A stretch of DNA of 60,241 nt, counting the filler, from Stramenopiles sp. TOSAG23-3 (Eukaryota): NCBI GenBank assembly GCA_900128585.1. It is 6 parts of 6 records of this genome, joined end to end, with 100 filler letters (N's around TTAATTAATTAA, not from the genome) between each part and the next. Parts side by side here need not be neighbours in the genome. Positions count along the whole stretch, not along the records: positions 18,189 to 36,195 come from LT642435.1; 5 more parts are not named here. The stretch is one strand, 5' to 3'. The notes under the pieces were generated by a model. It was not told where the DNA came from. It saw only the letters and a list, made by a program, of their open reading frames with translations, and did not search any database. Position numbers and translations under genes: made by a program. Positions 18,189 through 36,195 of the stretch are shown here, in pieces. Numbering within the stretch: position 1 is the stretch's first letter; every line of letters begins with the position of its first letter.

Positions 18189-18267
18189 AATGGTAACAAT
18201 ATTAGAACCCTTATTCAAATTTGACACCACAAAAACTTTCGTCAAACCAGGAAAAACTACCTCTTTA
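18189..18267 (+). repeat. Left terminal inverted repeat (inner 79 bp; rest missing at the contig edge)
   Basis: Exact reverse complement of 23714-23792. Confidence 0.92.
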
Positions 18268-18271
18268 CAAA

Positions 18272-19783
18272 ATGACTAGTCTAACTACCCCATCAAAAAA
18301 CAACATGGACGAAACTAACTATCAGACTCCAACACAACCTACAAACCCTGTAAAACAAGGTGATAGTGGTCGTCTACTTAAAATAGAGTTTAAACAAAGA
18401 AAAGTCTTAGCACAAAGAGATTTTATTAATTTTGTGGCAAATGAAAAACGAGTTCCAAAACACGTTTTAAACAAACGACCAAAAACAGTCGATATGTATG
18501 ATTGTTCTTCTATTGAACTAGAAGACGAATATGACGAAGAATACCTGAAAAGGTTGGCAGTAAAATGCAACTTACCACGAAAACCTGCGTTTTATGAATG
18601 GCGAGAAAGTATTTCCAACAGATATCTATGGCGCTTATTTTCAGAAAAAAGAAACGACGAAATATTCAGTCTTTTCCGAACGTGTAATGAAATACGTAAT
18701 CCACCTTCTAACGTCCCAGCAAAAAAGTGGTTTGAAAAAATTAAAACAATCAAATTAATTAAAATGAACGACAACTCCTTTAAGTTGGAAGGGTGCGAAG
18801 AAACAAAGAAAATGATACGTGGTTTTACACATCCACAGTCTTTGTTGCTTCTTCTAAAATCTTGTTTTGATACCCACGTTAACAATTGGAACGAATTTGT
18901 TGATAATTGCTTTAAACTTGAAACGTTTGATTTTAACGATTATAATTGGTTTGACTTTACATCACACGAAGAAAGAATAAAAACATTTCTTGATTGGTAT
19001 AAAACACACCAAAGAAAACCCAAAGCAAAACCTTATTGTAAAACCGAAGAAGACGATGTGGAGCATCGTTTTTATTATTGGTTACAATATAACAAAGACA
19101 AACAAGAAGAATCATTCAAGACAGCGTTTGATGAAAACTTTGGTAAAGGAGAATACGACAAAGCAAATAAAAAGCATAAGTTTTTTGTATTTAATCGAGA
19201 ATCTGACTTGTCAAAGTATTTTGATTGGTATAAAACACACCAAAGAAAACCCAAACGAAAACTAAATCGTAAAACCAAAGAAGAAGTATTTGAAAATGGT
19301 TTTTATGAGTGGTTGAATAGTCACAAACACAAAGAAGAACAATTCAAGACAGCGTTTGATGAATACTTTGGTGAAGGAGAGTACGACAAAGCAAATGAAA
19401 AACATAAGTTTTTTGTGTTTCGCCGATCAAATAACTTCTCAAAGTATTTTGATTGGTATGAAACACACCAAAGAAAACCCAAACGAAAAAAAAATCATAA
19501 AACCGAAGAAGAAGAAGTGGAAAATAGTTTTAAGATCTGGTTGCAAAATAACAGAAACAAAGAAGAACAATTCAAGACAGCGTTTGATGAATACTTTGGT
19601 GAAGGAGAGTACGACAAAGCAAATGAAAAGCATAAGTTTTTTGTTTTTAGAAAAAGAACAAAGAAACCTATCGAAGGTGCTATTGAGGAAAAAGTAGGAG
19701 AATGCAGTTGCTGTTTTTCCAATTCTTCACTTGTAAGGTTTGAATTTAACAATTGTTTTAAGTGCTTTTCTTGTTGCTTTTGA
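18272..19783 (+). CDS. Element-encoded protein with three ~76-77-aa tandem repeats (helicase-associated/HA-domain-like)
   Basis: Repeats FDWYKTHQRKPKRK...E..FY.WLQ.NK.KEEQFKTAFDEYFGEGEYDKANEKHKFFVF start at 18991, 19222 and 19450. ATG at 18272 lies just inside the TIR. The last ~35-45 aa look like antisense read-through. Confidence 0.7.
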   Translation: MTSLTTPSKNNMDETNYQTPTQPTNPVKQGDSGRLLKIEFKQRKVLAQRDFINFVANEKRVPKHVLNKRPKTVDMYDCSSIELEDEYDEEYLKRLAVKCNLPRKPAFYEWRESISNRYLWRLFSEKRNDEIFSLFRTCNEIRNPPSNVPAKKWFEKIKTIKLIKMNDNSFKLEGCEETKKMIRGFTHPQSLLLLLKSCFDTHVNNWNEFVDNCFKLETFDFNDYNWFDFTSHEERIKTFLDWYKTHQRKPKAKPYCKTEEDDVEHRFYYWLQYNKDKQEESFKTAFDENFGKGEYDKANKKHKFFVFNRESDLSKYFDWYKTHQRKPKRKLNRKTKEEVFENGFYEWLNSHKHKEEQFKTAFDEYFGEGEYDKANEKHKFFVFRRSNNFSKYFDWYETHQRKPKRKKNHKTEEEEVENSFKIWLQNNRNKEEQFKTAFDEYFGEGEYDKANEKHKFFVFRKRTKKPIEGAIEEKVGECSCCFSNSSLVRFEFNNCFKCFSCCF

Positions 19784-19983
19784 GCGTCTACCTGTTTCTT
19801 AAGTAAACTCTTAACATCTTTACGAAGTTCTTTGTCTGGTGTTGATTCGCTCTTGGCTTGTTTCCCAGCGGTCGTGAGCCTTCCTTCCAGCCACGATGCA
19901 TCGTTTTTATACTTATTAGGTGCGTTGTTGCCGAACACCACTTTGTAGGTATCTTGTAAAGTTTTTAATCGTTTCGTTGCCAT
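19495..19983 (-). CDS. Element-encoded coiled-coil protein, probably 3'-truncated
   Basis: ATG start and K/Q/E-rich helical N-terminal ~100 aa. The rest is antisense of the repeat gene. Confidence 0.5.
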   Translation of the reverse strand: MATKRLKTLQDTYKVVFGNNAPNKYKNDASWLEGRLTTAGKQAKSESTPDKELRKDVKSLLKKQVDAQKQQEKHLKQLLNSNLTSEELEKQQLHSPTFSSIAPSIGFFVLFLKTKNLCFSFALSYSPSPKYSSNAVLNCSSLFLLFCNQILKLFSTSSSSVL

Positions 19984-20739
19984 GTTGATAAGATGTTGAA
20001 ATTGTTTTGAGTTTTGTTTGTTTCCACTCTTCCTTTTCGTTTTCTTTCCTTCTTTTCCCTTTTCTCTTTTTACTAACTTTTTACAAAGAAATCCATTTAA
20101 CCTTTGGCATTTTTACTTTTCTAAAATAAATTGGGGAGAGAAAAGTTAATGCTATTTCACCCTATTCGATGTAAAACCAAAATAAATAATCTTCTTCTTA
20201 ATAACCCTACGACTCAGCTTCCTTGCTATTCCATGTTAACATAATTTTCTAACACTAACAGAAACGAGTATCCAAAGGTAAGAAGATAGTTTAACATAGC
20301 AATAGCACTACAGATTAATAGAATTAAACGAGTGGTGATTGATTAGATGCCCCCCTCTATTTTACTAGAAGACTCCTACCTCTACTACAGGATTTTCTTA
20401 ATACAATCGAGCGTTTCAGGACTTACTACAGGATTTCTTTAGTAAGATTCACCTCCTCCATTTTTACTAAAAAATTATTTTAGTAAGATTTGCTATGGTG
20501 TGTGTATGGACGAATTATTTAGTGTACGATACCATGTAAGAAATAGCACCAGTATACGATTGAATAAAATCCAATTTTCTTAATAAATCATTTGGTTTAG
20601 TAAGAAATCGATACAAAATCTTGCTAACCCCCATGATGCTTACCTGTTATTTTGGGTAGTAGGTTAATAGTATAGAATCATTAAATAAGAGGAAGATACA
20701 ATAGTTTTCTATGGTGCTATTATATATATAAAAAGAAAA

Positions 20740-22098
20740 ATGGAAAAAAGTAAAATTGACAAAGTGTTAACCGAAATTTATTACAATCCGTTGGAGGGTT
20801 TAGTCGGAGTAACCAATCTGTATAGAAAAGCAAAAAAGAAATTAAAGTCTATCACGATGAAACAGGTAAAGGAGTGGTACAAGCGACAATCAACAACCCA
20901 AATCCATTATCGAACCAAGAAGAAAATAAGTTATTTGCCTATCTTCTCTTACAAGTCAGGTGCATTTCAGATGGATCTGACGGAGATGAAACGGCTGAGT
21001 TCGAAGAACAAGGGGTTTAAATATATCCTCACCGCAATAAATGTAAATACCAGAAAATTGTACGCTTATAAATCCAAAACAAAAAATGCTTCTGCTATAA
21101 AACAATTGTTAAAACAGTTTAAAGACGATGTTATAAGTCATAATGAAACTTTCAAAACTAAGAACAGAGTAGATGTACCGTTAACCAGCGTGACGACGGA
21201 CGCTGGATCAGAATTTCTAGGAAACAAAAAGTGGTTTGAGGACAACGAGGTTCAGTTGATTATTGTCAACCCATCGAACAAAAAGTATACCACATCAAAA
21301 ATAGAACGAGTCCATCGCACTTTAAAGGAACTATTTAACAAATACTTTACTGCTTTTCAAACGGCAACATGGTATGATATTCTGGACGACTTTGTTTCCA
21401 ACTACAACAACCGCTACCATGCAACAATTAAACAAGAACCGAACCAGGTGGGTAAAAAGGAAGAGAAGGAAATAATAAAAACAGACTTTGCCCGTATGGT
21501 AAAGCATTTGAATAGAAGGATGTTTCAGGTTGGAGATAAAGTTCGAATACGAAATGTTAAAAAGATGTTTGAGAAAGGGGAGATTCTATACTCGACAGAG
21601 GTGTATACCGTAGCCGAAACCAACCCTCTTTTTACCTTTCGAGTAAGGGATGACGACGGAGATTTGCTTAAGAAGACCTTTAAAGATTATGAGTTGTTGT
21701 ATGTTGGGGAAGATGTTGAAAATGTTAAAAGCCGAACTGTGGTGGAAGAAGCAGATCGTGAAGCATCTAGCAGGAATCGTTTTGCCAGAACAGGTTTAGA
21801 TAGAAGCACTATTCGAAGCGACCAGATGAGAGCCAGTAGAAGGATAGGGGACGTGATGCGACCTAAGACAAAAAAGAAAGTGAAGCGGATAAAATGGAAG
21901 TTTAGAAGGGGTGATAGAGTTAAAGCCAAAGCCTCCTTTTTTAAAGACACGGAATTGTCTGAAATAAGACGAACTGGAAAGGTAAGCCAAACCATCAATT
22001 ACAAAGGAACGCCAGCGTATAATATAAAATGGTCTCGAGAACCCAAAGGATTATACTACGACCAAGAATCGGTAGAAAATGAACTAGAAAAAATATAA
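20740..22098 (+). CDS. Retroviral-like (rve, DDE) integrase of Polinton/Maverick/PLV type
   Basis: N-terminal IYYNP..G..G..NLY...VKEW..RQ. Catalytic triad FQMDL / TTDAGSEF / IERVHRTLK. Also YNNRYHATIK..P, FQVGDKVRI...FEKG...YSTEVYTV and an extra C-terminal SH3/chromo-like beta domain. No stops or frameshifts. Confidence 0.93.
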   Translation: MEKSKIDKVLTEIYYNPLEGLVGVTNLYRKAKKKLKSITMKQVKEWYKRQSTTQIHYRTKKKISYLPIFSYKSGAFQMDLTEMKRLSSKNKGFKYILTAINVNTRKLYAYKSKTKNASAIKQLLKQFKDDVISHNETFKTKNRVDVPLTSVTTDAGSEFLGNKKWFEDNEVQLIIVNPSNKKYTTSKIERVHRTLKELFNKYFTAFQTATWYDILDDFVSNYNNRYHATIKQEPNQVGKKEEKEIIKTDFARMVKHLNRRMFQVGDKVRIRNVKKMFEKGEILYSTEVYTVAETNPLFTFRVRDDDGDLLKKTFKDYELLYVGEDVENVKSRTVVEEADREASSRNRFARTGLDRSTIRSDQMRASRRIGDVMRPKTKKKVKRIKWKFRRGDRVKAKASFFKDTELSEIRRTGKVSQTINYKGTPAYNIKWSREPKGLYYDQESVENELEKI

Positions 22099-22117
22099 AT
22101 ATCATCGGTTATATATA

Positions 22118-22468
22118 ATGCCATTAATTAAACTCGATTCTTCAGCAACGAATGGAAAGCCAGAAAATTTTACCACAACCTTTAGCAATTTTGTTTTGGA
22201 AGACAATACTGAATACGAAGTAGCGATGGTTGCTTTAAGTATGAATTACAGTTACCCAAATGTTAGTGTTAAAAATGCAAACAACACCGTAGAATATTCG
22301 CCAAACAACGGTACAAATTTTTACACCCGTAAAGGAACGAAGCAAAAGGGCGGAGCAATATTTGGATTGGCGGCTTCAGTTTTAACGCCGATGGCTGTAG
22401 AAGTTATTGGGACTTCCATAGCCAAAAAGAAACCTGTCACTTCAGTAATGCGTGATTTTTTTAAATGA
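22118..22468 (+). CDS. Chimeric ORF: N-terminus of a PLV/Polinton minor capsid (penton) protein fused to a QKGG-hydrophobic core-protein-like tail
   Basis: aa 1-70 NFTTTF...L....EYEVAMVALSMNYSYPNV...NNTVEYS match the penton N-terminal pattern. Abrupt switch at ~22327 to RKGTKQKGGAIFGLAASVLTPMAVEVIG. Confidence 0.6.
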   Translation: MPLIKLDSSATNGKPENFTTTFSNFVLEDNTEYEVAMVALSMNYSYPNVSVKNANNTVEYSPNNGTNFYTRKGTKQKGGAIFGLAASVLTPMAVEVIGTSIAKKKPVTSVMRDFFK

Positions 22469-22503
22469 TTAACTTTTAAATATAAAATTTAATTATTATA
22501 TAC

Positions 22504-22632
22504 ATGTTTAAAAAGCATTTTGAAGATGCTATGAATCGGTTCGATAAGTTAAAAGCCTTGTTGCTACAATTGATTTCTATGCTTCAGAAAACTATTGCAT
22601 TTCTACAGCAAGTCGTTCGTGAAATTGAATAA
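22504..22632 (+). CDS. Small 42-aa amphipathic-helix ORF of the element (not in the ORF track)
   Basis: MFKKHFEDAMNRFDKLKALLLQLISMLQKTIAFLQQVVREIE*, preceded by TTATATAC-ATG like the two upstream genes. Confidence 0.45.
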   Translation: MFKKHFEDAMNRFDKLKALLLQLISMLQKTIAFLQQVVREIE

Positions 22633-23463
22633 TAATTTTGTCAATAAAGCGTTTAATGTTTTTAATTTTTTCTTCGCCATGACGATTCCTTTCTGACTGT
22701 AATCGTTATCGAACAGATTTTCTCCTTTTAAACTATCTGCCAAAGATTTTTTAAAAATTCTTATATTTCCATTTTCATATTTTATATCTTCCTTTATAGA
22801 TTGTATTAGTTTTTCGCCCTGAAGTTCTTCTTTGTCTAACAGTACAAGGCAATAAATACATTTGTTTGAACTATGGTTTGTTTTCACTCGCCATCCACAA
22901 CTGATACATCTATTGTTCTTTTCAAGAAACTCCCACCCTTCCTTTTCTTTTTTTTGTATCAACATGGATGTAATTTTTTGTGGGTTTACAAAATCCTGAA
23001 ATATCTGTTTTTCATAGTCGTAGTCCTGAATAAAATTTGTTGGTTCTTCTAGATCGAAAAATTTGTCTAACATTCTATCATTCCAGACAAGACAATATAT
23101 ACATTTGTTTGAAATATGCTTTGTTTTCACTAGCCTTCCACAACTGATACATCTATTGTTTTTTTTAAGAAACTCCCACCTTTTCTTTTCTGTTTTTTGT
23201 ATCGGCATGCATGTAATTTTTTGTGGCTTTATAAAATCCTGATATATATGTTTTTCATAGTCGTCTTTTAAAAAATTTGTTGGTTCTTGTTCTGTTTCTT
23301 CGTCTGTCTCTTCGTCTATTTCTATGTCGCTTTCATCAGAGTCTGTTTCATAATACAAAATAGGTTTCGTTTCTCTTTTCATTCTTTTCCTACACACATA
23401 ATATTTTTCCTCTTCATGTGCATGTATAGAAAAACATTTTCTGTAGATTCTACTCTTCTTCAT
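22603..23463 (-). CDS. Element-encoded protein with two 80-aa repeats, each ending in a CxxC-x12-CxxC zinc finger
   Basis: EPTNF...YEK.I.QDF..PQKIT.M.IQK.EK..WEFL.KNNRCISCG..VKT.H.SNKCIYCLV occurs twice with a DNA period of 240 nt. Acidic tract near the N-terminus. Confidence 0.7.
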   Translation of the reverse strand: MKKSRIYRKCFSIHAHEEEKYYVCRKRMKRETKPILYYETDSDESDIEIDEETDEETEQEPTNFLKDDYEKHIYQDFIKPQKITCMPIQKTEKKRWEFLKKNNRCISCGRLVKTKHISNKCIYCLVWNDRMLDKFFDLEEPTNFIQDYDYEKQIFQDFVNPQKITSMLIQKKEKEGWEFLEKNNRCISCGWRVKTNHSSNKCIYCLVLLDKEELQGEKLIQSIKEDIKYENGNIRIFKKSLADSLKGENLFDNDYSQKGIVMAKKKLKTLNALLTKLLFNFTNDLL

Positions 23464-23695
23464 GTTTTTCTTTGTACTTGTTAACTTGGTGTTGTAACTC
23501 TTTGTTTATATCTCGTAACGATTTGTTTGCCTCTTCTAATGCGTCGTTTACCTCTTGAAATGTGTCGTTAACTACGAGGGCCTTGTTAAGTGCTTTTTGT
23601 GTTGTGTCGTTAACTACGAGGGCCTTGTTAAGTGCTTTTTGTAACTGTCTGTTATGCCTCTGTAGAGTCTCAATAAAGGTTTCTTCTTCTTGCAT
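23450..23695 (-). CDS. Element-encoded short coiled-coil protein
   Basis: MQEEETFIETLQRHNRQLQKALNKALVVNDTTQKALNKALVVNDTF... with a 42-nt internal duplication. ATG at 23695 lies just inside the right TIR; the ORF track extends it into the TIR. Confidence 0.55.
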   Translation of the reverse strand: MQEEETFIETLQRHNRQLQKALNKALVVNDTTQKALNKALVVNDTFQEVNDALEEANKSLRDINKELQHQVNKYKEKHEEE

Positions 23696-23713
23696 CTTCG
23701 TCCTAAAAAAAAC

Positions 23714-24234
23714 TAAAGAGGTAGTTTTTCCTGGTTTGACGAAAGTTTTTGTGGTGTCAAATTTGAATAAGGGTTCTAATATTGTTACCATTTAAAAAAA
23801 GTTCTAAATTTATGAAATAAACTCGAGCGAAAGTTAGTTCATTCTTTTTTATTTTAAGACGGCTTGCCGTCTTAAAATAATAATTGTCCGTCCGTCTCAA
23901 TTTTTTAAAAAAAATTGTTGGGTTTGTGACCTGTTACCGTCTTGTTATTTTAACTACCGCTTCTTTGTGACCTAATTCATAACTCGAGCGAAAGTTGATT
24001 TTTTTTAAAATGAAATAAGACCATTCCCCGTGCTAATTCTATATATTTATTTTTGAGCTCAGAAGTGGTAGTTGAAAAAAAAAGAAATTTGGATTTGTTA
24101 AGGTTTTTTTAGGAAAGAGATTTTAAGGTTAAAATATTTTGTGATGGTATACCGTGCTAAAATGAAATATTTTTTTTAAATTTTTGGATTTGAGATTTTA
24201 CCAAAAATCCCCCCATTACTACTCCATTACTACT
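23714..24234 (-). repeat. Right terminal inverted repeat (~520 bp inferred)
   Basis: The inner 79 bp are confirmed by the left copy. The outer limit is inferred from 5'-AGTAGTAATGGAGTAGTAATGG on the minus strand. Contains a hairpin at 23849-23880 and 16-bp direct repeats at 23820 and 23981. Confidence 0.65.
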
Positions 24235-24556
24235 GATTAAATAAATTTGATCTTTAAAATAATTGTTTTAAAGAGTGATTTATTAATTTGAGGATGCAAT
24301 TTAAATGAAAAATGCTCGCTCCGCCGCCTACGGCCTCTTTTTCTTCCCTTCATATTTTTACTAACATAAAAAAAAATTTATTATTATTATTTTTTTTTTC
24401 ATTCACCCGGCTGGATTGTTTCCATGTCGTGTTGTTGTGACCAAATAAACATATACGCACAGCCCAAAGAGATAATTTTTCTCTCCTCCAGTCCAACGTA
24501 GGAAAATCCTATGGGCATTGCTTGACACCAACCTCTGCAAGTGTTAGTTCTTTGCC

Positions 24557-25099
24557 ATGGACGCTGGTGATTTTGACGATGGCACACTTCTGGAGTGGTG
24601 GGTGAGTTTGGGGGCGTCTTGCAAATGGCACAGCTGTTCACCGACGTGGCCTTGGGAGTGGAAGATTGTTGCACCTCAAGGGTTCGGGCGCTACCTTGCG
24701 CTGTCTTACCAGATTCCCGTGAACAGCGGCACTCATTTTGTAAATATAGAAATTCATATCGTGTTTCACCCAGTGTACCAAGTTCCTACTCTGTACTTTA
24801 ACATCTACCGGCCAAACGGAACTCGTGTGACACCGAATGAGGGCAAAGAGTTTCTGAGTTTTTTCCCGGAGAAAGACTTCGGCTCTTTCGTGACGCAGGC
24901 CGAGCATGTGTGCGCCCAGAAACCCTTTCTTTTTATACACCCGTGCCGAACGCACGAGTTTATGCAACAGTTCAAAACGAGCGGGGCGACGTCTGGGGCG
25001 CACCAGTACCTCTTGACTTGGTTCAACGTGTACGGAGCATTTTTGAAACTGGGCGTACCCCCAGCGTTTTTTCAGTCAGCGCTTCAAGGGCTGCAGTGA
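24557..25099 (+). CDS. ATG10: Autophagy E2-like conjugating enzyme ATG10
   Basis: HIVFHPVYQVPTLYFN, VTQAEH, catalytic FIHPCRT and YLLTWF..YG motifs. Confidence 0.88.
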   Translation: MDAGDFDDGTLLEWWVSLGASCKWHSCSPTWPWEWKIVAPQGFGRYLALSYQIPVNSGTHFVNIEIHIVFHPVYQVPTLYFNIYRPNGTRVTPNEGKEFLSFFPEKDFGSFVTQAEHVCAQKPFLFIHPCRTHEFMQQFKTSGATSGAHQYLLTWFNVYGAFLKLGVPPAFFQSALQGLQ

Positions 25100-25301
25100 G
25101 CAAAACCCACCTCTGTGGAATTGAAAAGCTTTTGGGGATTGCCCGGAGGGGTAATTTGAAGTGTTGCAATAGAAAGGGCAGAAACAATAATAAATGTAAA
25201 TATACTCTTACGTCTTTGCTACCAACACCAAACTCTAAACTTATTGATTGCGCACGCGTAGATTTTTCTGTGCTGGCGACTCTGCGGCCTCCCGGGCCTT
25301 C

Positions 25302-27569
25302 TTACTGTGCCTCGTGGATTGGGCGCCCAACGAGGAAGCTAAAGCTGTTCGCCGATTCGCCGTACGTGCGAGCTCCGTGCTGCGCCATGGACATCCTATA
25401 CGTCGGCATTCTAGCAGTGTCCGTGGGAAGTTTGTGCCTTATCTGCATTTCCTGCAAAATCTTGTCAGCCGCAAAGGATTTGGAAAATGCGGGACGAGTC
25501 AGGTTCGGGTAAAAGTTTAAATCACCGTCCCGGGGCAGCCATCTGCTTTTCCCGATGAACGGTTCCACATCCTCTTCCATGACTTCCTCCGGGGGAAGGC
25601 CGCGACCGTCACGTTTGATTTTATGGTCTTCGTCTTCCATGGCCCTCTCTGCGACAGACACTGGGGCTGGCATGGTGCCCATGTGTGGGTACCACCCAGA
25701 CTCCATTTCGCGCCCTTGGGCGTTGAGTATTCGAGGTTTCCCGGTCGCGGTCCAAGGCGTTTGGCGCCTCCCATTGGACGAGCCAAACGTTTCTGCCGTG
25801 CTGCCGCTGCAGGTACTGTCTCCGCGGGACGGCGCATTCAGGGACCCGAAGTATTTGCCGCGGTGCAAGTTTCTAAAGTCGTCGGCTGCATGCTGTTTCG
25901 CGACCATTTTGTCGAAATCATTTACGTCTTGCTCCAACAGAAGCGCCCGGTAATTTTTGTACAGCAAGGCCCGCCCGCGCCGCGACAACGGGCCGTTGGG
26001 GATTTTGCTCTTCGGCAAATCCCGGGGAGAGCCCTGCGGGGACGCCGTCGCCCCCGCGGTGGACCCGAACGAACCATGGTGCGCCGACATCTCGGCCCTG
26101 GACGACGAACTCGTCGGATCTCGAAAGCCAAGGTCGGTCACGATTCCCTGGTTGTCCATAACGATGGGCGCGAACCGCCCCCGTGGCGTCTTCATAACAG
26201 CAGGGGTAGACGAGCGAGGCCCTTGGCCAGCGCTGCTCAGCAGGCTCCCACGGCTGGCCATGCGCATCCCAGCGCTCGGGGTGGTGGCCATCCGCAGGCG
26301 GCCCATCGTGGTGGTCGGGGCGGACGCGGGCACCAAGTCGTTCGGATCGAAGACAGCGTTTATCATGTTTCCCGTCATGGACGCCGACCGCCGAACCCCC
26401 CCCCCGTTCAACCCCCCCCCGTTCCTCCCAAACCCGACGGGAACGGTCGCACCGCCCCCCGTGCTGACCCTTCGGCCTTTCCTTCTCGACTTGGCGGCTG
26501 CCGTGCTCAACCGTTCGCTACTGCCCATGGCGATGTCGTCCCCACCGAACTGCATGGTCTCCTCCCCTTCCTCAAAACCATTCAACGTTTGCCCGGAGAG
26601 CGACGCCGTGTACAGGGCCGCGGCGTCCGTCGGGGCACGGGATATCTGGTGCAGCGTGCGCTGCAAATACGCCGCCATTTGCCCACCGGAGACCAGATCG
26701 TAGTCTTGCAGGATTCGCATGATCCTGTCTGCGGCATCCGCCCGTTCTTCCAGAACTTTGGATATTCGACTCCGCCGGGCCCTCGCGTTGTTTCTATCTT
26801 TGCCTTCCCCAATAATCCTAATCTCGCGCGCAATCTCCGCCTTTTGCTCCGTCTCCAGCAAGTTCAGCAAATGCTCGAACCTGTCAATTTCTTGGGCCTG
26901 CGCGGTGGTCTGCTGCTTCACCCAGAGGCCTTCCATCTTCAGCGTGTTTGCGACCTGCTTGGTTTGGCCCACGGCCAACTCGTTCTTTTTCTTCCGTATT
27001 TCCACTTCCTTCTCGTTTGCAGCGTTCGCTATATAATTCCCGGACGTCCTGTCAAACGCATAGCGCTGCTTGTCCGCGCTGGCATAGTGGATCTGGCGCG
27101 CCACCAGCTCTTCCGCCAGCCTGTCCTCTTTTCGCAACCGTTTGTGGTTTTTCTCTACAAAGTAGTCCCGGGTCTCGTCGTACACCGTGTCCGGGTAGTA
27201 CTTTTTATCGATCCGTTTCGGGGGCAAAAATACTTTCGAGTACGAGCTCGGGCGATTGAGTTCGCGCTTTATGATTTCCGTCAATATTTTCAAAACTTTT
27301 CGAAGCGTAACTTTGTCGTCCAGCGCCGACGTGGACCCGTGCAACCCGCTCCCACCGCCTTCGCCGACCGAGGACAAAATAGACCCGGCCGTCGACAGCG
27401 CGCTCCGCCTCGAAGAGTGCGACGTTCCAAGGCCACCCCTGGACAGTTGCCGCGCACGGGCCTCTATACCCCTTGCCTTGTTCCTAGCGTCCTGCACGGC
27501 CCGTTCCTGGGCTTTCTCTACCCCCTCGGCACCCCAAAAGAATGCACCCGCCGAGGCCGACTTTCTCAT
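25302..27569 (-). CDS. Hypothetical protein, coiled-coil plus disordered G/S-rich regions
   Basis: Long GC-rich ORF (track 25302-27680). Likely ATG at 27569 (MRKSASAG). No recognised domain. Confidence 0.7.
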   Translation of the reverse strand: MRKSASAGAFFWGAEGVEKAQERAVQDARNKARGIEARARQLSRGGLGTSHSSRRSALSTAGSILSSVGEGGGSGLHGSTSALDDKVTLRKVLKILTEIIKRELNRPSSYSKVFLPPKRIDKKYYPDTVYDETRDYFVEKNHKRLRKEDRLAEELVARQIHYASADKQRYAFDRTSGNYIANAANEKEVEIRKKKNELAVGQTKQVANTLKMEGLWVKQQTTAQAQEIDRFEHLLNLLETEQKAEIAREIRIIGEGKDRNNARARRSRISKVLEERADAADRIMRILQDYDLVSGGQMAAYLQRTLHQISRAPTDAAALYTASLSGQTLNGFEEGEETMQFGGDDIAMGSSERLSTAAAKSRRKGRRVSTGGGATVPVGFGRNGGGLNGGGVRRSASMTGNMINAVFDPNDLVPASAPTTTMGRLRMATTPSAGMRMASRGSLLSSAGQGPRSSTPAVMKTPRGRFAPIVMDNQGIVTDLGFRDPTSSSSRAEMSAHHGSFGSTAGATASPQGSPRDLPKSKIPNGPLSRRGRALLYKNYRALLLEQDVNDFDKMVAKQHAADDFRNLHRGKYFGSLNAPSRGDSTCSGSTAETFGSSNGRRQTPWTATGKPRILNAQGREMESGWYPHMGTMPAPVSVAERAMEDEDHKIKRDGRGLPPEEVMEEDVEPFIGKSRWLPRDGDLNFYPNLTRPAFSKSFAADKILQEMQIRHKLPTDTARMPTYRMSMAQHGARTYGESANSFSFLVGRPIHEAQ

Positions 27570-28148
27570 CCTCGCACCTGCCTGCTGCACCCACACCGAA
27601 CCAAAAACTAGACCACTACCACCCACTAACTCACTCAACTCAAGAATACTTTCAAAACGCCTTGGAGAAGGGTCATGCAAAGTTTTTTCTTCTTCTTCTC
27701 GTCTTGACTTGCTACTTTCTTCAACACGTCTTCTTTCTACAATAGAATAGTAGATAAATGATTTTCTTAATTCGTTATTATTATTACTACTACTACGAGC
27801 GAGAGTATATTAAAAAAAAAGTTGTTCTAAAACTTTTTTATTTTAATATTGTTGAGTGATAATATTAAGGAATTAAACCAACATTATACAACCAACATTT
27901 AAACCAACATAATACAAATACAATTGTACACGCATTGAAAATAGTTAAACCATTATCCTTAACGTTTCGAAGTAGAATAACGGTTATGGAATGAAGAATG
28001 AATGGGATTGATGAAGAGAATTGTTGTCCACCAAAGAGTCGGGAACGGAGAGACAGTTTGCACGTTGTTCATTTACTTACGGATTATCCACCACCTTCAG
28101 TTTATATATGTAAGCAACCTGTTTCTTAAAGTTATATTTAATTTTTTT

Positions 28149-29759
28149 TTAGTTTGACCCTTTGCATCTCAAAATGCCGCAGGGCTGTTTCAAACAACCC
28201 CATTGATCTTTCTCTTCGTTGAGTTCACGCTCGCACCCTTCCTTGAGCTCGTTCAACGGCGGGCATTTGATGGTGGGGCACTTGGCTGCTGCTCCTGTAA
28301 TTGCAATCCCCGCCCTCCCCCCCGTACTACTCCGCCCGCCCGTCGCCCCGGTGGAAAACACGTTCCGGGCTTCGGCATCTTCTAATTGCTCAGCTTCCGG
28401 GCCACTGGCCCCACTATCTTCGTCTTCCTCGTCCTTTTTCGTTTTATTCTCGGCCGAGCGCGCCAAGGTCACCTCCTCGTCTTCCATCATGTTTTTAAAG
28501 CCCTCGGGCAACGGCTTCTGGTTCTTGCTGTACTTGGGGTCGCCTAGTCGACACAAGTGGTAGCTTTTGTGCGCGTCCGCGGCGGCCTTACTAATGACGC
28601 CGCAGTACTGCTCGGTGGACTTGAGCTTGTCCAAATGCGGCTGCACCGCTTTCTTCATCTTCCCCAACTGCGTGTTCTCCGCTTTCCTCAACGCTTCCAC
28701 CGAGGCGTCCTTGGTGACCTTGGCGTCCCGGGTGGCGTTTTGCGCCGCATGGCAACCCTTTCTAGCGTGGCGCAAGGCGCGCAGTATGCCTGGCCCCGCA
28801 ACCTCGGCATGTTCGGCTTGCATTTCAAACTTGCCCCACTTCTCGTCGGCCTGGCTCTTCGCTTTCAACGCACGGTGGACGTCTTTCTCCAACCCCTCGA
28901 TGTCCATCCCTTTACTAATGTACCACTTTTCCCCAGACGACAAGGCTCCCATTTGGGCGTTCGTCAGGTGCTCCTTCGCGGCCGACAAGGTCTTTGTCGC
29001 CTTGGCCGCGACCGTCTTTGCCTTGTCCGCGTACGCCTCTAGGGTCAGGATGGGGCCCGCCATGTGCTCCCAATGGGCCTTCTTCAGGCACGCGTCCTTC
29101 TCCGCTTCGACGGCCTCCTCGTACTCCTGCACGGCCACCGAGTGGTTCTTGACCTTCTCGTCGGAGACGCCCAGCCCCCCCGTGAACCAGGCCTCGAACG
29201 GCGAGAGTTTCGTGGTTTTCCTTATCTTGGCCTCGATGTTCTCCGCCGCTTTGTCGCACAAGCTTTCCTTCTCCATGGCCTCCTTCCACGCAAAATAGTC
29301 CGACGCGCACCTGTGCTTGGAGAGGCACTGCCAGCGGTGGTACCCCTCCGGGATGTGCTCCACGTCCTCCGGTAGGTACGGCTTTGACACCATCCCGTGC
29401 TTCTCGTCGAAGCACTCGTAATCACCCGCGGTGACCATGACGACGCCGGCGTGGTCCGCCGAGAGGTTCGGGGTCATCCGCTCCCGAAGGCAGGAAGTCG
29501 TCGGGCAGACCAGGAACATTTCTGGCATAGGCTTGTGGCGCTTCATTCGCTGCTGTTCGTGGCCGTTTCCAAAGTCCTGGCGCATCCCCGTTATGCTGTG
29601 GGGGGCGGGCATGCCTAGCAACGGGGCCAGGGGCTTACCCAGGTCCGTCGCGTTGCCGTCGCCGCGGCGGGAGGCGCGTAGCCGGGAGGCACGCGCACTA
29701 ACAAAAACTATGGCTAACAAGATAGCCGCAAACGTGGCGGCAGCGCTCTGGAGTTTCAT
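28149..29759 (-). CDS. Secreted hypothetical protein (signal peptide, helical repeats, Cys-rich C-terminal module)
   Basis: MKLQSAAATFAAILLAIVFVSARA signal peptide, A/K/E coiled coil, and C-terminal CPTIKCPP...GC...D.WGC....CGILRC. Confidence 0.75.
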   Translation of the reverse strand: MKLQSAAATFAAILLAIVFVSARASRLRASRRGDGNATDLGKPLAPLLGMPAPHSITGMRQDFGNGHEQQRMKRHKPMPEMFLVCPTTSCLRERMTPNLSADHAGVVMVTAGDYECFDEKHGMVSKPYLPEDVEHIPEGYHRWQCLSKHRCASDYFAWKEAMEKESLCDKAAENIEAKIRKTTKLSPFEAWFTGGLGVSDEKVKNHSVAVQEYEEAVEAEKDACLKKAHWEHMAGPILTLEAYADKAKTVAAKATKTLSAAKEHLTNAQMGALSSGEKWYISKGMDIEGLEKDVHRALKAKSQADEKWGKFEMQAEHAEVAGPGILRALRHARKGCHAAQNATRDAKVTKDASVEALRKAENTQLGKMKKAVQPHLDKLKSTEQYCGVISKAAADAHKSYHLCRLGDPKYSKNQKPLPEGFKNMMEDEEVTLARSAENKTKKDEEDEDSGASGPEAEQLEDAEARNVFSTGATGGRSSTGGRAGIAITGAAAKCPTIKCPPLNELKEGCERELNEEKDQWGCLKQPCGILRCKGSN

Positions 29760-31176
29760 CGTGTAGAAGGACGGTGTACTACCAGCGAGTGTGTGTGTGG
29801 TGTCCCAACAAGATGTCCGTCAAAACAACAAACAAGACACGTACACGCAAAACAAACGAACGTATACAAAACAATCGAACGCGCGCAGGAGCAAACAGAG
29901 ACAGGCAAACGTTTCCCTACTACGGCCAATCATCCCCTCGTTCCTTCCCTTTTTCATGTGCATTGCACTCCGTACCGTTCCCTTCCCGTATTTTTCTTCT
30001 TCGTTTCTTTCCCTTTTCCAATTTACTTACATAAAACTACCAAAGGAAAACAAAAATAAAAGGAAGGTGTAACTATAAGTCTACTATGTATTATACTTAT
30101 TACAATATATTTTCTTCCTATCAAATCACCTACCCCCTCTTTTCACCAGAAGAGAAGTCTTTGAAAGAAGAAATGCTTCCTTCTTTTTTGATAGGTATTA
30201 ACATAAAGAAGTATACGAATTATACGTAGTAATTATAGAAATGCTTCCTTCTGTACGTGACGATGATAATAAAAGAGACTGTATCGAATGGTTGGTATGA
30301 TCGTTTTTTTTTTTTTTTTTTTTTTTTTTTTCCTTTTTTTTTTTTTTTAAAATTTTAATAAAAAAAAAAAAAAAAAGAAGAGATGAGGAGAGGAGAGGAG
30401 AGGAGAGGAGAAGAAAAAACAATTGAAGATTATATGAAATAACTATCAACAAACGTCGCTCACGCGTCAAACCTGAGAGCTACGTGTAGTCATCCATGGT
30501 TGAAAATTTGTATCTTACTTTAGGAAAAGCAAGAAGAAGATTATACTACAGAACTGATCCTGTTGAGTACTGTTATAAAGGAAGGAAGGAAGTTGTTAGT
30601 ATTTTTGTAATTGGAATTAAGGATATTTTTTTAATTAAGGAAAAGCAAAAGGATTCAAATGACCCTCTACGCTTGAACGTTAATTAAGAAAGTAAGGTAC
30701 TTACTAGTCAGGGCAGAAATGGTATTATTTAACTATATATACTAATATAAATTATTCAAAATTCAAAATTCAAAGTTCAAAGAAGATAGAAGAAGAAAGA
30801 AGAAAGAGAAGAAGAAGAAAAAAAAAAAAGATAATATATTACTGTATATTATTATTATTCTTTTTTGTTTCAATCACAAAATCCTCCCTCTCTTCTTCCC
30901 TTCCTTCCTATTTGAATTCCAAATGTGGAAAGTAGCTCAGATGTGTAAATGCATCAAAGACGTTAAGTTGTATGAAATGAAATGAAATGAAACTGAGGTG
31001 ATTATTAGATGATTCCCATCCTGTTTTTTGTTGGGTCTCTTTCGTTCAGTTGTCTAACTCACTACACACAAAACAACAATATTTGAACACTCTGTATCTG
31101 TCTATTGCGAGGTTTGTGTGTGTATTTGGGACCGAGGGATTGAGTAAGGTAGGCAGGTAGGTAGGCAGGCAGTTGG

Positions 31177-34100
31177 TTGCTTTGCTTTTCGTGTTTTCTG
31201 GTGTGTTTCGGCAGTCTTTGTCTTTGTTTACGTCTCCGTATGTCTACGTCAGTTTCAACGCTTCTCGAGCGGGCCGTGTACACGAACGAGGCGGATGTCA
31301 TCGTGGAGTCCTTTGCGTGCCTGCGGGGGTTCCCTGGGGACATGTACACGACGCCCGAGAGGCTAGTCGCGCAGGAAACGACGGGGTACGTGGACGCGCA
31401 CAGCCCGTCGGCGGCGGCCGACGATAGCGGCGAGCCAAAGTTTCAACCAAACCGGGACCTGCGGCTGTCGCACGTCTCCGCCGAGGCGCTCTTGGAGGCC
31501 ATGGCCTTTGTGTCCACCCTCGCGGCCGCCTTGGACAGGTTGCGCCAGTTCAGCAAGAACTACTCCCAAGGTGACGTTTCCAGGGGAATCGTCTGGCAAA
31601 CGTTCGCGTACGCCATCGGACTGTACATATTTGACATAGAGGGACGGCTGATCGGCCTGGAGCGGGAATTCCACGCCTCGGCAAGCGAATCCAACGGGTC
31701 CCAGCCGACGCTGCTGAAGCTCCGGGGGTGCCTGCAGCCCGTTCGGGACAGCGTGGCCTTCGTCGAGAACATCGTCGAGACCGTCGTTGCCGAGGTGAAG
31801 CACGACCGCATCGACGCAACGCTGCACGCTTCCAAGACGCTGTCGGTGCTGTACGGCTTTCTGGGCGAGGCTACCCTGCTCTTCAACGGGGACGACGGGC
31901 TGAAGGGCAAGTACGAGACGCTGTACCCGCTCTGCAGGAAACACGACGGGGGGGCGTCCCAAGAACCTTGCTTTCGGCCCGTCGACGTGCTGGCCGACCT
32001 GAACGTTGCCCTCTCCATCTTTGCGACCACCCTGAACCCGTACATACACTTGCTCCAGTCGTGGCTGCACTCTGGGCTGCTCGTCGATGTCCATGGCGAC
32101 TTCTTCGTCACGCCCGGCCGAGCCGAAGGCACCGACGGTGCCCACGGCCGCCGTCGGCGCAGGGGCAAGGTTGTCCGTGGGGCGTTCAGCCCGCTGCCCA
32201 AGGCGCACCAGTTCCAGGACGGTCCGGGGGGGGAACCCGCACGTTGCGGCGCGGCGGGCCCGAACGCGCCCGCGATCGATGAAGCGTTTTGGGACGAAGG
32301 GTACATTTTTGAAGAAGCCTTTGTACCGTCCTTTTTGAAGCCGATCGCGCGGGAGATTTACCTGGCCGGGAAGTCCATCGCAGTCATGCGGACCATGTCG
32401 ACCACGACGTTCGCCACGGCCGCGCAGAATACCGTCGCGTCGTCAAAGCTTAACATTTCCCTGCACGCCACCGCCACGAACGGCGCGCGCGCTGCGCCCG
32501 GCGGCGACGAACGGTCCAACATATTCGAGGTTTTTGCCGCACACATGTCGAAGTTTTTGCCAGACGAGCACCAGTTCGCACGCCACCGCCACGTTGCCTC
32601 CCTGTCGACCACGGGGCACCCGGGGTCAGAGGGGTTCCGGAAACGGCGCGTTGAAGTGAACGAGATGTTCTTTAACGATGAGGGCCCGCGGTTCCAACAC
32701 TTCCAAGTCGACGACATGCGGAACAACGGGTGGCTGACGGCCGCAGAGGAGAACATGTATGGCCGGGGGGGCAACCTGTTGAACGACGATACCGGGTCGT
32801 TCCTTGGACGAACCGTTGATTTTTACATGCGCGACGGGGAGCTGCAGGGACGGATCCCTGCCCACCCGGTGCGCGCTGCACGAGGGCGCGAGGACGGGCC
32901 CGCACCGACCGACAAAAGTCCGGACCCGGGCGGAGAGCAGGGCCCGGCCCTATTCGAAAGCGTCCACAGCGTGCTGATCGGTGGCCCGTTCATTTCCGAG
33001 CTGAGCGTAAACCACCTGTGGACGGGCGCCGCGACGCGAACGTCGGAGGACATGCTTGGAAGCTTCAACGCCACCGAAGTACTGAAGGTCTCCCTGACCC
33101 GCCCGGTCCGCCGGTTGTGCTTCCAGGAAAACTTTGCCTTTGTCAAGATGTTCCGCGAAGAGCTGAGCTTGATCCCAGTCCTGGACTCCCTGCGCGTATG
33201 CTACTTTTTCTCGGACGTGCAAGTCATGGAGCCGTTTCTGTTGAAACTCTTCGGCCAAGTGGACACCGCAGTCACCGACTGGGTGCGCACGTTGACGATC
33301 AATTTCCGAGACAACCTGGAGGCCCACGGGGCCGCCAAACTAAGCTTTGATCCGGACCACTGGGACGCTACCATTTTTTCCGAGGGCGGCGACGGGCCAG
33401 AGAATGGAGATCAGCGTGCCCACGACAGCTACGACGGCATTGGCGCGCTCGACAACCTCAAGCTGACCTACCACGCGCCGTGGCCGTTGAACATCGTCAT
33501 CGGGCGGGAGTCGCTGCAGTTCTACAACGACATCATGCGGACCTTGATCCAAGTGAAGCGCGTGAAGTACCAGCTCGACAATTTGCACCATGAACTTCGC
33601 CATGAGATCATAACGTTGGAGAAAGAAGCTGCGGGAGAGGTGTACTTTCTTCCCCGGGACGCGGAATTTAGGAGCCACGCGCACTCAAACATGCTGTTCA
33701 TCGGAAGGCTGATGCATTTCATCAACAACCTTCACAATTATTTAATGGAACGGTGCGTGTACGGCGAGTGGGACGACATGACGCAGGCGATGATGGAGGC
33801 CGCGAGCGTCGACGACTTGCGGGAGGTGCACCTGAGCTACCTCCGCCGTTTGCACGAGCAGTGCTTGCTGAACCCGAAGGCAAAGGTCGTCGCCATTCAA
33901 ATCCGAAAAATATTGAACATCTCGTTGCAATGCGTGGGGGCCATCAAGCGCTGGATCCGTCTGGGGAGCCAGCGCGTGGAGTGGGAAGGGGACCAGGTGC
34001 GCCGGCAAGAGCACGTGCCCTATTCTGCGATGCCCATCGAGGAAAACCGTGGGTTGACGCAGTCCCTCATACACCTAGATGATCTGCAGCTAAGGTTCAA

Positions 34101-34230
34101 GAAAACTAATGAATTCTTGCACATCCTTCTTGCGACCCAGATCAAGCGAGCGCACGATTCAGTGCAGCACATCACGGACGTCCTTTTGAGGCTTGACTAT
34201 AACCATTTTTACAAGAACAGTCTGGCGTGA
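31177..34230 (+). CDS. TUBGCP5: Gamma-tubulin complex component, GCP5-like (Spc97/Spc98 family); true 5' end uncertain
   Basis: PYIHLLQSWLHSGLLVD.HGDFFV, VPSFLKPIAREIYLAGKS, LKLTYHAPWPLNIVI...YNDI...LIQVKRVKY.LD, LMHFINNLHNYLM and LLRLDYNHFY. Confidence 0.85.
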   Translation: MLCFSCFLVCFGSLCLCLRLRMSTSVSTLLERAVYTNEADVIVESFACLRGFPGDMYTTPERLVAQETTGYVDAHSPSAAADDSGEPKFQPNRDLRLSHVSAEALLEAMAFVSTLAAALDRLRQFSKNYSQGDVSRGIVWQTFAYAIGLYIFDIEGRLIGLEREFHASASESNGSQPTLLKLRGCLQPVRDSVAFVENIVETVVAEVKHDRIDATLHASKTLSVLYGFLGEATLLFNGDDGLKGKYETLYPLCRKHDGGASQEPCFRPVDVLADLNVALSIFATTLNPYIHLLQSWLHSGLLVDVHGDFFVTPGRAEGTDGAHGRRRRRGKVVRGAFSPLPKAHQFQDGPGGEPARCGAAGPNAPAIDEAFWDEGYIFEEAFVPSFLKPIAREIYLAGKSIAVMRTMSTTTFATAAQNTVASSKLNISLHATATNGARAAPGGDERSNIFEVFAAHMSKFLPDEHQFARHRHVASLSTTGHPGSEGFRKRRVEVNEMFFNDEGPRFQHFQVDDMRNNGWLTAAEENMYGRGGNLLNDDTGSFLGRTVDFYMRDGELQGRIPAHPVRAARGREDGPAPTDKSPDPGGEQGPALFESVHSVLIGGPFISELSVNHLWTGAATRTSEDMLGSFNATEVLKVSLTRPVRRLCFQENFAFVKMFREELSLIPVLDSLRVCYFFSDVQVMEPFLLKLFGQVDTAVTDWVRTLTINFRDNLEAHGAAKLSFDPDHWDATIFSEGGDGPENGDQRAHDSYDGIGALDNLKLTYHAPWPLNIVIGRESLQFYNDIMRTLIQVKRVKYQLDNLHHELRHEIITLEKEAAGEVYFLPRDAEFRSHAHSNMLFIGRLMHFINNLHNYLMERCVYGEWDDMTQAMMEAASVDDLREVHLSYLRRLHEQCLLNPKAKVVAIQIRKILNISLQCVGAIKRWIRLGSQRVEWEGDQVRRQEHVPYSAMPIEENRGLTQSLIHLDDLQLRFKKTNEFLHILLATQIKRAHDSVQHITDVLLRLDYNHFYKNSLA

Positions 34231-34435
34231 GGACGAAACACGATGGACTCGGTCCCAAAAATGTGTGGGTGTGGTGTGGAAAGCGTGCGTGTAATAAAAT
34301 TAACCCTAAAAAAACAATTTAATTGTTACAAGATAAATTCAAAACGAGCGACGTACGCGTGTGCTGCGTTAGCTTATGCAAATTCTTGGTCCCCCTTTAC
34401 GTATAGATACGAGAGGCCCCGCCCCCCAACCCCCC

Positions 34436-35416
34436 TCACTGATCCTCAAACCCATCTTTCGTTATTTCGAATAGGTTTTCATTCTCTACTTCGCCGGATG
34501 TATTTACAAACGTCGCCTTTCTTTTCTTGTGAACTTCGCCCCGGGATAGTTTCAAGCGGTAGAACTGGTCCGATTTTGAACCTAACTTGACGACTGGTTT
34601 GACTGCATTCTTTCGTGCACTACTGACAAAGCTGTTGCCCCCAGCGCTGGACCCTTCGCCATCGTATTTTCTACCCCCTTGCTGCTTTTTCTTTGCGCCC
34701 ATGTCCGCTACAACGTCGTTGACGAGAATGACCGTGCACTTCTTCATCTCTTGGAACGCTTTTACATCATTCAAAACGTTCGAAAGCAACAGCTTTGCCG
34801 ACGCCCCCGTCGGTTTTGCACCATTCCCACCGTTTTTGCCGGGCCCATCTTCGCCTTCTTTTCGTGCCGAAAATTTCCCGTCCTTGATGTTCGACCGGGT
34901 GGTCTTGAAGGCGCATCCTAAGCTATCGATCAGCAAGAGCTTCACGTTCGAAAACTGGCGGGCACGATTCAACAATCTCTGGACTTCTTCCAACGTCTTG
35001 CTCCGTACCGGGGCAACTCTTACTTGGTCCGTACACAAGTTTTCGTTGTAACCCTTCGATCGCGCGATATCTGTAATTCTCGTCGCTCGAAACGAACCGC
35101 TGACGTCGATCCAGACGACTGTAGAGTTTCGTTTGGACGCGGTCTCTGTCGCAAAGTTGAAGCAAAGCTGTGTCTTCCCGGTCGCCGCCTTTCCGAAAAT
35201 TTCAAGAGTTTTCCCATCGATGCCTTCGTTCGGCAGCAGCGAGTCAATGCAGTCGCACCCTGCAAGAACGTGTTTGTGCCTTGTGAGCGGTGTTTCTGAA
35301 GCGGGCGTTTCCGCCTTACGTTTTCTGCTCGAACCACCGGATGATGTCGCAGCGGCAGTATTTGGTGGGATCTCGCCCAACGCCGAACGGCGTGTTTTGG
35401 TGTCTGAATTTGGCAT
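34436..35416 (-). CDS. RAD51 paralogue / RecA-family ATPase
   Basis: GCDCIDSLL..GI....LEIFGKAATGKTQLC (Walker A), VVWIDVSGSF...RI, LLLIDS (Walker B), VILVN.V. Confidence 0.85.
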   Translation of the reverse strand: MPNSDTKTRRSALGEIPPNTAAATSSGGSSRKRKAETPASETPLTRHKHVLAGCDCIDSLLPNEGIDGKTLEIFGKAATGKTQLCFNFATETASKRNSTVVWIDVSGSFRATRITDIARSKGYNENLCTDQVRVAPVRSKTLEEVQRLLNRARQFSNVKLLLIDSLGCAFKTTRSNIKDGKFSARKEGEDGPGKNGGNGAKPTGASAKLLLSNVLNDVKAFQEMKKCTVILVNDVVADMGAKKKQQGGRKYDGEGSSAGGNSFVSSARKNAVKPVVKLGSKSDQFYRLKLSRGEVHKKRKATFVNTSGEVENENLFEITKDGFEDQ

Positions 35417-36195
35417 TTGTGAAGCAACTAATGGTTCAATATGGTTCGTTTTCCTCGTGCGTGGTTTTGAATAGGAAAATAGTTTAAAATAGGAAATCGT
35501 TACGCTTACACAACGCTTTCAATTTGAAAAAGATTTCTCTTAATCTTGTTTTCATTATTTTTCTTTTCTTGAATTGTTGAATTGTGAATATAATAATAAT
35601 AATAAAAAAAATATTATAATAATAATCACAATATGGGGAAGAAGATATCCCTCTCCTAGGCATAACAGACAGCTGAACTGTCTGTTAATTTATATAGAAT
35701 GAACTATACTTAGAGTATACGTGGTATACGTGGTGGTAAATTATTTCGACCTCAAAATTAACAGACAGTAAAACAGACAGCTGAATGCTATTGCACCCTA
35801 GATCAATTAAGTATTTAGGTGTCCTACGAGGTGTGTTCATCTTTTATTATTATATAATTCTTTGTGTTATTTTGGATTTGTTTTCGCGCCACGGACACTG
35901 AACACTTTATAACAGCTGTCTACGATAGCAATTAACTTATTAAAAAAAACATCGGTCGTGTTTTTATTTTTCTAAAACGAGGGACCTATTAGCATAGGAA
36001 GAGCATTAAGTATTTTTTTAACTAAATTAGACGATTATTTCGTTAGCGATTATAGCCATTATAGTACATATGAAGTATCCAATCTTTTAGATACATTATT
36101 TACATGTTGAAAATGGATATTATTCTTTGAAAATACTGGGTTACCAGATTTGATATGTATTATTAAACATACAAAAAACTCAAGGATCGACTCTT

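Follow-up and report, generated by a model that had tools for sequence, protein, structure and literature searches.

Polintons/Mavericks carry terminal inverted repeats (TIRs) of roughly 100 to 1000 bp, and Repbase lists non-autonomous families among them. The subject of this study is an element at positions 18189-24234 of a 60,241-base window of DNA from Stramenopiles sp. TOSAG23-3, in which six contigs are joined with N spacers and contig 2 spans 18189-36195. Vertebrate Mavericks have been described with the end motifs 5'-(AGT)2...(ACT)2-3' or, alternatively, (AG)3...(CT)3, and with target-site duplications (TSDs) of 6 bp; most integrated copies are decayed, and 96% of the vertebrate loci in that account are degraded (PMC8097293). 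Insertions of Polinton-like viruses (PLVs) are widespread in protists, where short-read assemblies can imitate degradation (Bellas et al. 2023, PMC10120064). Transpovirons are described as TIR-bearing derivatives of about 7 kb, thought to have arisen from PLVs by gene loss; they have lost the morphogenetic module, kept a zinc-ribbon gene, and carry a superfamily 1 (SF1) helicase fused to an inactivated protein-primed DNA polymerase (pPolB), with no integrase in the gene set given (PMC5499653). Ginger1 and Ginger2 are small TIR elements in which a Gypsy-like integrase is the sole enzyme (PMC2836005). Compared with these systems, the element on contig 2 is probably an integrated PLV of the Polinton/Maverick lineage, residing in the nuclear genome of a marine protist and reduced by internal deletions.

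The evidence for reduction lies in a 116-aa open reading frame (ORF) after the integrase gene. A penton-like fragment had been claimed here in the first-pass annotation, with a suspected break at 22327. We found that the ORF (22118-22468) matches pentons of about 250 aa over residues 1-70 only, that the suspected break is the end of this match, and that residues 71-116 correspond to the tail of a basic protein of about 60 aa. Among 32 protein matches, 24 covered only residues 1-72, six covered only residues 69-116, and two were repetitive proteins crossing the junction; a colinear match spanning the junction was found in none of the 32. The N-terminal matches included the 237-aa P0117 and the 251-aa P0118 (80-81% identity). 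The six tail matches were P0123-P0125 (59-78 aa), P0126 (42 aa), P0127 (141 aa), and the fusion protein P0145, and the product of 22328-22468 was 65-76% identical to the C-terminal parts of P0123-P0125 and 74% identical to P0126. Because the matches end at about residue 70 and then switch to the small-protein tail, the join was placed at 22327/22328. P0118, folded with 13 relatives into a predicted structure (pLDDT 91), matched penton or minor capsid proteins of TVS1, adomavirus (LO5), mavirus, adenovirus, and giant viruses (51 matches at E <= 0.001). In one related locus, L003, the penton homologue is located between a protease-like ORF (read by eye, no Pfam hit) and a double jelly-roll (DJR) major capsid protein (MCP; PF21738). 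Judged from these alignments, the 116-aa ORF is a deletion scar.

To place the scar among other copies, Logan contigs of four runs were aligned to 18189-27000. X1 and X3 come from one organism, sampled twice and sequenced separately, X4 is a metagenome, and X5 is a metagenome from another study. X3 had no cover at 18189-20820, and X4 and X5 covered the element in pieces only; such holes carry no evidential weight. The junction of penton and small protein was seen only in X1 and X3. The full-length penton P0118 and the 461-aa integrase P0084 are each recorded on a 5038-nt contig, indicating that in intact relatives the integrase is accompanied by a full penton. P0119 shows 98% identity but diverges after residue 54, and P0145 fuses an integrase SH3 region to the tail of the small basic protein. 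These sequences suggest a family of decaying copies, each with different deletions. In addition, X4 and X5 hold pieces of related elements with 88-99% identity, diverging from the window at various internal points.

The element had also been described as lacking a polymerase, an ATPase, a protease, and a major capsid protein, and none of these was detected. Pfam searches of the seven main ORFs recognized only the integrase, weakly, and found no helicase or polymerase domain in any element ORF. When 103 ORFs from nine related loci were searched against the element by tblastn, only integrase ORFs matched below E 1e-3, and with six pPolB-type ORFs from related loci no match reached an E-value below 0.46. 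The same approach found no trace of pPolB or another core gene in the noncoding block at 19984-20739. Thus, of the morphogenetic module of Polintons and PLVs (DJR MCP, penton or minor capsid protein [mCP], A32 ATPase, and adenain protease), only the 70-codon penton stub remains.

Polinton anatomy is seen in those related loci that have sufficient flanking sequence. L006 carries a Pfam-confirmed pPolB directly upstream of the integrase. In L001, L002, L004, L008, and L009, the integrase directly follows a mutually homologous ORF of 1200-1300 aa (cut at the 5' end in L008 and L009), which is weakly similar to the L006 pPolB; L001 has an A32 ATPase as well, and matches a penton weakly. L003 combines the integrase with an A32 ATPase, the protease-like ORF, a penton, and the DJR MCP, and in L007, the closest locus (52% identity), an adenain-type protease (Peptidase_C5) adjoins the integrase. 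L003 (1-9417, IMG/VR) is a compact contig resembling a Maverick, and its full order is chromodomain integrase, A32 ATPase, a phospholipase A2 (PLA2)-motif protein, protease-like ORF, 240-aa penton, DJR MCP, and a repeat-rich fiber-like ORF, the PLA2-like motif being in a separate 195-aa ORF.

The integrase links the element to these loci. It had been reported as an uninterrupted 452-aa DDE integrase, and the ORF is indeed intact. Its match to Pfam rve was weak (E 7e-5, below the gathering score); a profile built from it and 17 relatives matched the integrase cores of foamy virus and other retroviruses (best E 2.8e-16). The catalytic residues D79, D154, and E189 are all present, and D79 and D154 were invariant in the 18-row alignment. 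Three distant relatives, P0014, P0017, and P0020, have N at the E189 position and are otherwise well conserved. An AlphaFold model (pLDDT 73) predicted a helical N-terminal domain, an RNase H-like core, an SH3-like barrel, and an extra C-terminal beta domain. Residues 1-75 contain no Cys and one His and therefore hold no H2C2 zinc finger. At E <= 0.001, 82 relatives were found among 5031 candidates, with up to 70% identity and nearly all of them from marine metagenomes; one member of a cluster carries the label of a MAST-4 stramenopile protein. Distant relatives have canonical chromodomains, and some have a parvovirus-type PLA2 domain. In seven of them (P0044, P0054, P0064, P0065, P0067, P0071, and P0075), rve and a parvovirus-coat-type phospholipase A2 (PF08398), mostly together with a chromodomain, are joined in one protein.

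In a FastTree phylogeny of 86 integrase rows, the window sequence was placed with L007 in a 15-row clade (support 100). This clade lies inside a 26-row group (support 93), where the next clade contains L001, L008, and L009, and L002 and L004 are further out in the same 36-row half of the tree (support 97). L006 was not a row, and the tree is unrooted because it contains no named Ginger, long terminal repeat (LTR), or virophage reference. A JGI metagenome scan yielded 70 loci, of which only L007 (1985 nt) was close, and IMG/VR held nothing close to the single integrase, the 4-row penton alignment, or the 24-nt TIR end. The differences between the window integrase and its diverged metagenome copies fell at the third codon position in 12 of 13 cases for X4 and 13 of the 19 listed for X5, indicating that the integrase evolved under constraint between copies.

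The element ends were examined next to the host sequence. The start of contig 2 had been reported to match 23714-23792 as an inverted repeat, and 18189-18267 is its exact reverse complement over 79 nt (100% identity, BLAST E 2e-35). The right arm would measure 521 nt if it reaches 24234. X1 Logan contigs break at 23714 and at 18238, the latter k-1 = 30 nt inside the left arm, as expected for a k = 31 graph at the edge of a genuine repeat. The earlier placement of the right terminus at 24234 was confirmed from two sides. ACTACT occupies 24229-24234, so that the right end carries the (ACT)2 motif of Mavericks, and metagenome contigs diverge at exactly 24235. X4 record 23 is a contig of 2427 nt; its positions 284-2427 align to 24235-26381 on the host side with 6 mismatches over 2147 nt, consistent with the same species, and its first 283 nt have no counterpart in the stretch. 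X5 record 29 aligns to 24235-24637, and the 21 nucleotides that it has past the boundary are unlike. The same boundary base in both metagenomes, directly after ACTACT, indicates that the element ends at 24234. Wild populations hold alleles that are empty or differently occupied at the insertion site, and the insertion appears to be polymorphic in natural populations and recent.

Together, the integrase profile and tree, the penton matches, and the 79-nt repeat bear out the initial assignment to the Polinton lineage, with the inverted repeat genuine, the integrase intact, and a remnant of a penton present. The element resembles Polintons/Mavericks in its retroviral-type integrase without an N-terminal zinc finger, a penton of the same fold, a probable long TIR, the (ACT)2 3' terminus, relatives in which pPolB lies immediately upstream of the integrase, and a decayed state (PMC8097293). 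It differs from them in lacking pPolB, ATPase, protease, and MCP, in its size of about 6 kb versus 15-20 kb, in its marine protist host, and in the extra C-terminal beta domain that its integrase clade has instead of a canonical chromodomain. It also shares features with the endogenous PLVs of protists, which are described as AT-rich, TIR-bounded insertions in unicellular eukaryotes with an rve integrase and mCP, often fragmented in short-read assemblies (PMC10120064); they were found via their MCP genes, whereas this element has no MCP and its close relatives are absent from IMG/VR.

The same features bear on whether the element could be a Ginger-type cut-and-paste DNA transposon with a capsid-like fragment acquired by chance. 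Its size and content would suit such an origin, since Ginger1 elements are given as 2.6-7 kb long, with TIRs and a Gypsy/retroviral-like integrase as the only enzyme (PMC2836005). Gingers are further characterized there by TGTNR termini, an H2C2 zinc finger, and 4-5-bp TSDs, and none of these traits that could be tested was found here. The element ends in ...ACTACT (complement AGTAGT...) rather than TGTNR, and the N-terminal domain of its integrase is helical in the model. Membership fails because the termini and the zinc finger do not fit. In addition, the integrase groups with integrases encoded beside pPolB and capsid genes and is followed by a viral penton remnant. A Ginger origin is therefore highly improbable.

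Since short-read protist assemblies fragment PLV insertions and create false consensus sequences (PMC10120064), we considered whether a full-length endogenous virus, or a set of near-identical copies, had been collapsed into a falsely short sequence with a 79-nt repeat produced by graph or amplification chimerism. A possible assembly join at 22327 had been named as a result that would undo the initial interpretation. The join proved to be real DNA: X1 record 5 covers 19601-23483 and X3 record 10 covers 21708-22388, both bridging 22327 with 0 mismatches. X3 records 9-14 cover 20821-24997 without mismatch, with gaps between contigs at 22389-22406, 23591-23612, and 24184-24193; records 12-14 lead from the TIR into ATG10, and record 13 bridges 24234/24235. 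As X1 and X3 reproduce the 22327 join and the host junction, these joins are not products of the assembler used for the window, and the second sample with an identical element and junction answers the caveat that short-read assemblies can imitate degradation.

Some discrepancies would fit an artefact. After 23790, inside the presumed TIR, X1 and X3 both have 19 nt more than the window, and X4 has an 18-nt version of this insertion. The doubled 11-mer (CCATTACTACT) described at 24213-24234 is present twice in the window, with no further occurrence there, but only a single copy is found in the X1 and X3 Logan contigs. These 19-nt and 11-nt indels, which set the window apart from the Logan contigs of its likely source run, may be differences between the two arms or assembly errors; if they are arm differences, the stop of the contig precisely 79 nt into the repeat would be accounted for. 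Logan contigs are also broken by the tandem repeats at 18990-19600, leaving the number of units unsure. Against an artefact, another assembler and two samples reproduced 20821-24997 except for the short gaps and the two TIR indels. The left and right interiors enter the repeat at the same base, and both entries are deep in the Logan data (1165 and 5213, respectively; these are contig means from libraries that look amplified and were not taken as copy number), unlike a rare chimera. An assembly origin of the short structure is thus quite unlikely.

The favored history can be outlined as follows. A linear double-stranded DNA virus genome with long TIRs would have used the retroviral-type DDE integrase that it encoded to enter the host genome about 320 bp upstream of ATG10. 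Thereafter, at least one internal deletion fused penton codon 70 to the tail of the small basic protein gene, and further losses probably took the MCP, the packaging ATPase, the maturation protease, and the replication gene. What remains is the intact integrase, both ends (the left for 79 nt only), and several lineage-specific genes with recent tandem duplications. The element is young enough that the integrase is still intact and the ends are still present. By its predicted gene content, it cannot build a particle or copy itself; with its integrase and ends, it could at most be excised and reintegrated, or be mobilized by an intact relative. Decay of this sort is what usually happens to such insertions.

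Several observations weigh against this history. A full-length relative of this sublineage was not recovered, and IMG/VR gave no close match. The ENA contigs of the closest relatives measure 5038 nt for P0084 and P0118, 6260 nt for P0003, and 6499 nt for P0002, lengths that an element small by nature could also show; those of P0150 and P0186 are 12015 and 10787 nt long, respectively. The window contains no more than 79 nt of the left TIR, because the contig start truncates it, and an X1 Logan contig passes from 23714 through 24235 into the host unbranched, so that the left arm and left flank are invisible in the data. Moreover, the intact integrase and a zinc-ribbon ORF conserved at 91% fit a reduced element that still functions equally well as they fit a young remnant.

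These points lead to the main competing explanation, a genuine reduced element of about 6-7 kb without capsid or polymerase genes that spreads by means of its own integrase and TIRs, or as a satellite for which an intact relative provides packaging and replication. The third-position-biased divergence of the integrase, the retained TIR and canonical terminus, the polymorphic insertion, the 5.0-6.5-kb contigs of the closest integrase relatives, and the recurrence of the zinc-ribbon gene with the same duplication on another contig are all in its favor. Transpovirons may offer a precedent in their size, TIRs, loss of the morphogenetic module, and retention of a zinc-ribbon gene (PMC5499653); they have the helicase fused to the inactivated pPolB and no integrase, whereas the present element has an integrase and no helicase. 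On the other side, the penton stub fused to the tail of another gene is a scar whose junction is private to the two samples of this organism, relatives with 80% identity keep a full-length penton with the integrase, and other copies (P0119 and P0145) have different deletions. Little can be read from the length of metagenome contigs, which are usually fragments, and a second insertion site of the same architecture was not found. We regard such an element as unlikely here. An undescribed class of reduced Polinton derivatives of about 6-7 kb in marine protists, combining integrase, zinc-ribbon gene, and ORF1, spreading as transposons or satellites and forming an integrase-bearing counterpart of transpovirons, is slightly more doubtful still; if it exists, the 5.0-6.5-kb contigs of the closest relatives would be near-complete elements rather than fragments.

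For the PLV reduced by internal deletions, the outcome can be set against the first-pass annotation, which had described a reduced derivative that kept both ends and the integrase. The reduction, the integrase, and the right end were upheld, while a distinct "mini-Polinton" kind, satellite, or integrase-driven transposon was not, in view of the private scar and the full pentons in relatives. The features of the element and its host flank are listed in Table 1.

Table 1. Coordinates of features in the element and the adjoining host sequence, given as window positions
Feature	Position	Strand	Description
Left TIR, inner 79 nt	18189-18267		Truncated by contig start; contains first 26 codons of the right-hand terminal gene
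ORF1, 503 aa	18272-19783	+	C-terminal half consists of three tandem repeats of about 76 aa; units from 18990, 19221, and 19449
Leftward ORF	19495-19983	-	First ~98 codons gene-like; remainder antisense to ORF1 repeats
AT-rich noncoding block, 756 nt	19984-20739		No ORF >=60 aa; three 27-nt repeats with 41-nt spacing at 20382-20490
DDE integrase, retroviral type, 452 aa, intact	20740-22098	+	Pfam rve (weak), profile, alignment, model
Penton (minor capsid) gene, first 70 codons	22118-22327	+	Deletion-truncated; 80-83% identical to residues 1-70 of P0115-P0118
Tail of small basic protein gene, ~46 codons	22328-22468	+	In-frame fusion to penton stub; P0123-P0126 matches
42-aa ORF	22504-22632	+	No Pfam family
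286-aa protein	22603-23463	-	Two CxxC...CxxC zinc-ribbon-like units; 243-nt internal duplication
113-aa coiled-coil ORF	23450-23791	-	Begins inside right TIR; perfect 42-nt tandem duplication at 23561-23642
Right TIR	23714-24234		Inner 79 nt verified as repeat; outer 442 nt putative TIR; terminates ACTACT
Host intergenic flank	24235-24556		GATTAA at 24235-24240 is a candidate target-site copy
ATG10-like host gene	24557-25099	+	Pfam Autophagy_act_C, E 3.5e-28

Seven ORFs lie between the arms: ORF1, the leftward ORF, the integrase, and the 116-aa, 42-aa, 286-aa, and 113-aa ORFs. When the six non-integrase ORFs were searched by tblastn against all 76 loci, no match at E <= 0.01 was obtained. ORF1 belongs to no Pfam family, its residues 1-260 had no homologue among proteins of 276-879 aa, and no usable atlas match was found. 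The leftward ORF gave only weak noise in Pfam and atlas scores of <=0.77, which are unusable. The 286-aa zinc-ribbon ORF has two relatives, P0164 (287 aa, 91% identical, with the same duplication) and P0165 (a 204-aa variant). Rfam and tRNA scans of 18189-24600 returned nothing.

Recent-looking tandem duplications occur inside several of these genes. In ORF1, three units of 228-231 nt (18990-19676) show 79-92% identity, and in the zinc-ribbon ORF, the 243-nt duplication (22844-23264) shows 88-90% identity. The frame stays open in all three coding duplications (ORF1, zinc-ribbon, and coiled-coil). In addition, a TTATATA-type box is located 1-15 nt before the ATG of the integrase, the penton stub, and the 42-aa ORF (20715-20742, 22106-22120, and 22493-22506, respectively). 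The leftward genes have no such box; nine of the 46 TATATA starts in the window are in the element, six of them in the three boxes. They might serve the element as a common promoter or initiator motif.

The genes on the contigs beyond the element are ordinary eukaryotic ones, among them those for a dynein heavy chain, a gamma-tubulin complex protein, Rad51, cytochrome b561, and the ATG10-like protein. The last of these had been placed about 320 bp downstream of the element, and its ORF lies 323 nt from 24234. The GC content is 33% in the element and 51% in the remainder of contig 2. The AT-rich block had been said to end at 24234, but the AT-richness continues into the host flank, which has a GC content of 34%. 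No nucleotide copy of the element was found in the other five contigs of the window, and Pfam identified no viral gene outside the element in the 24 of 91 long frames (>=110 aa) that were checked. The dynein heavy chain gene on contig 1 (6508-18064, minus strand) consists of two long intron-free ORFs (1256 and 2590 aa) that are 13 nt apart, indicating that the host is a flagellate with few introns in its dynein gene.

As things stand, the locus is probably nothing unusual, a deletion derivative of an already known type of element. It extends to marine heterotrophic protists the range of viruses of the Polinton lineage that have Maverick-type (ACT)2 termini and integrases linked to pPolB, in a sublineage with no close match in IMG/VR. 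As the element has no MCP, screens based on capsid genes would miss such remnants. The polymorphic insertion and the intact integrase point to recent activity, and the locus provides a natural test case for the decay of a virus or, possibly, for its conversion into simpler mobile elements.

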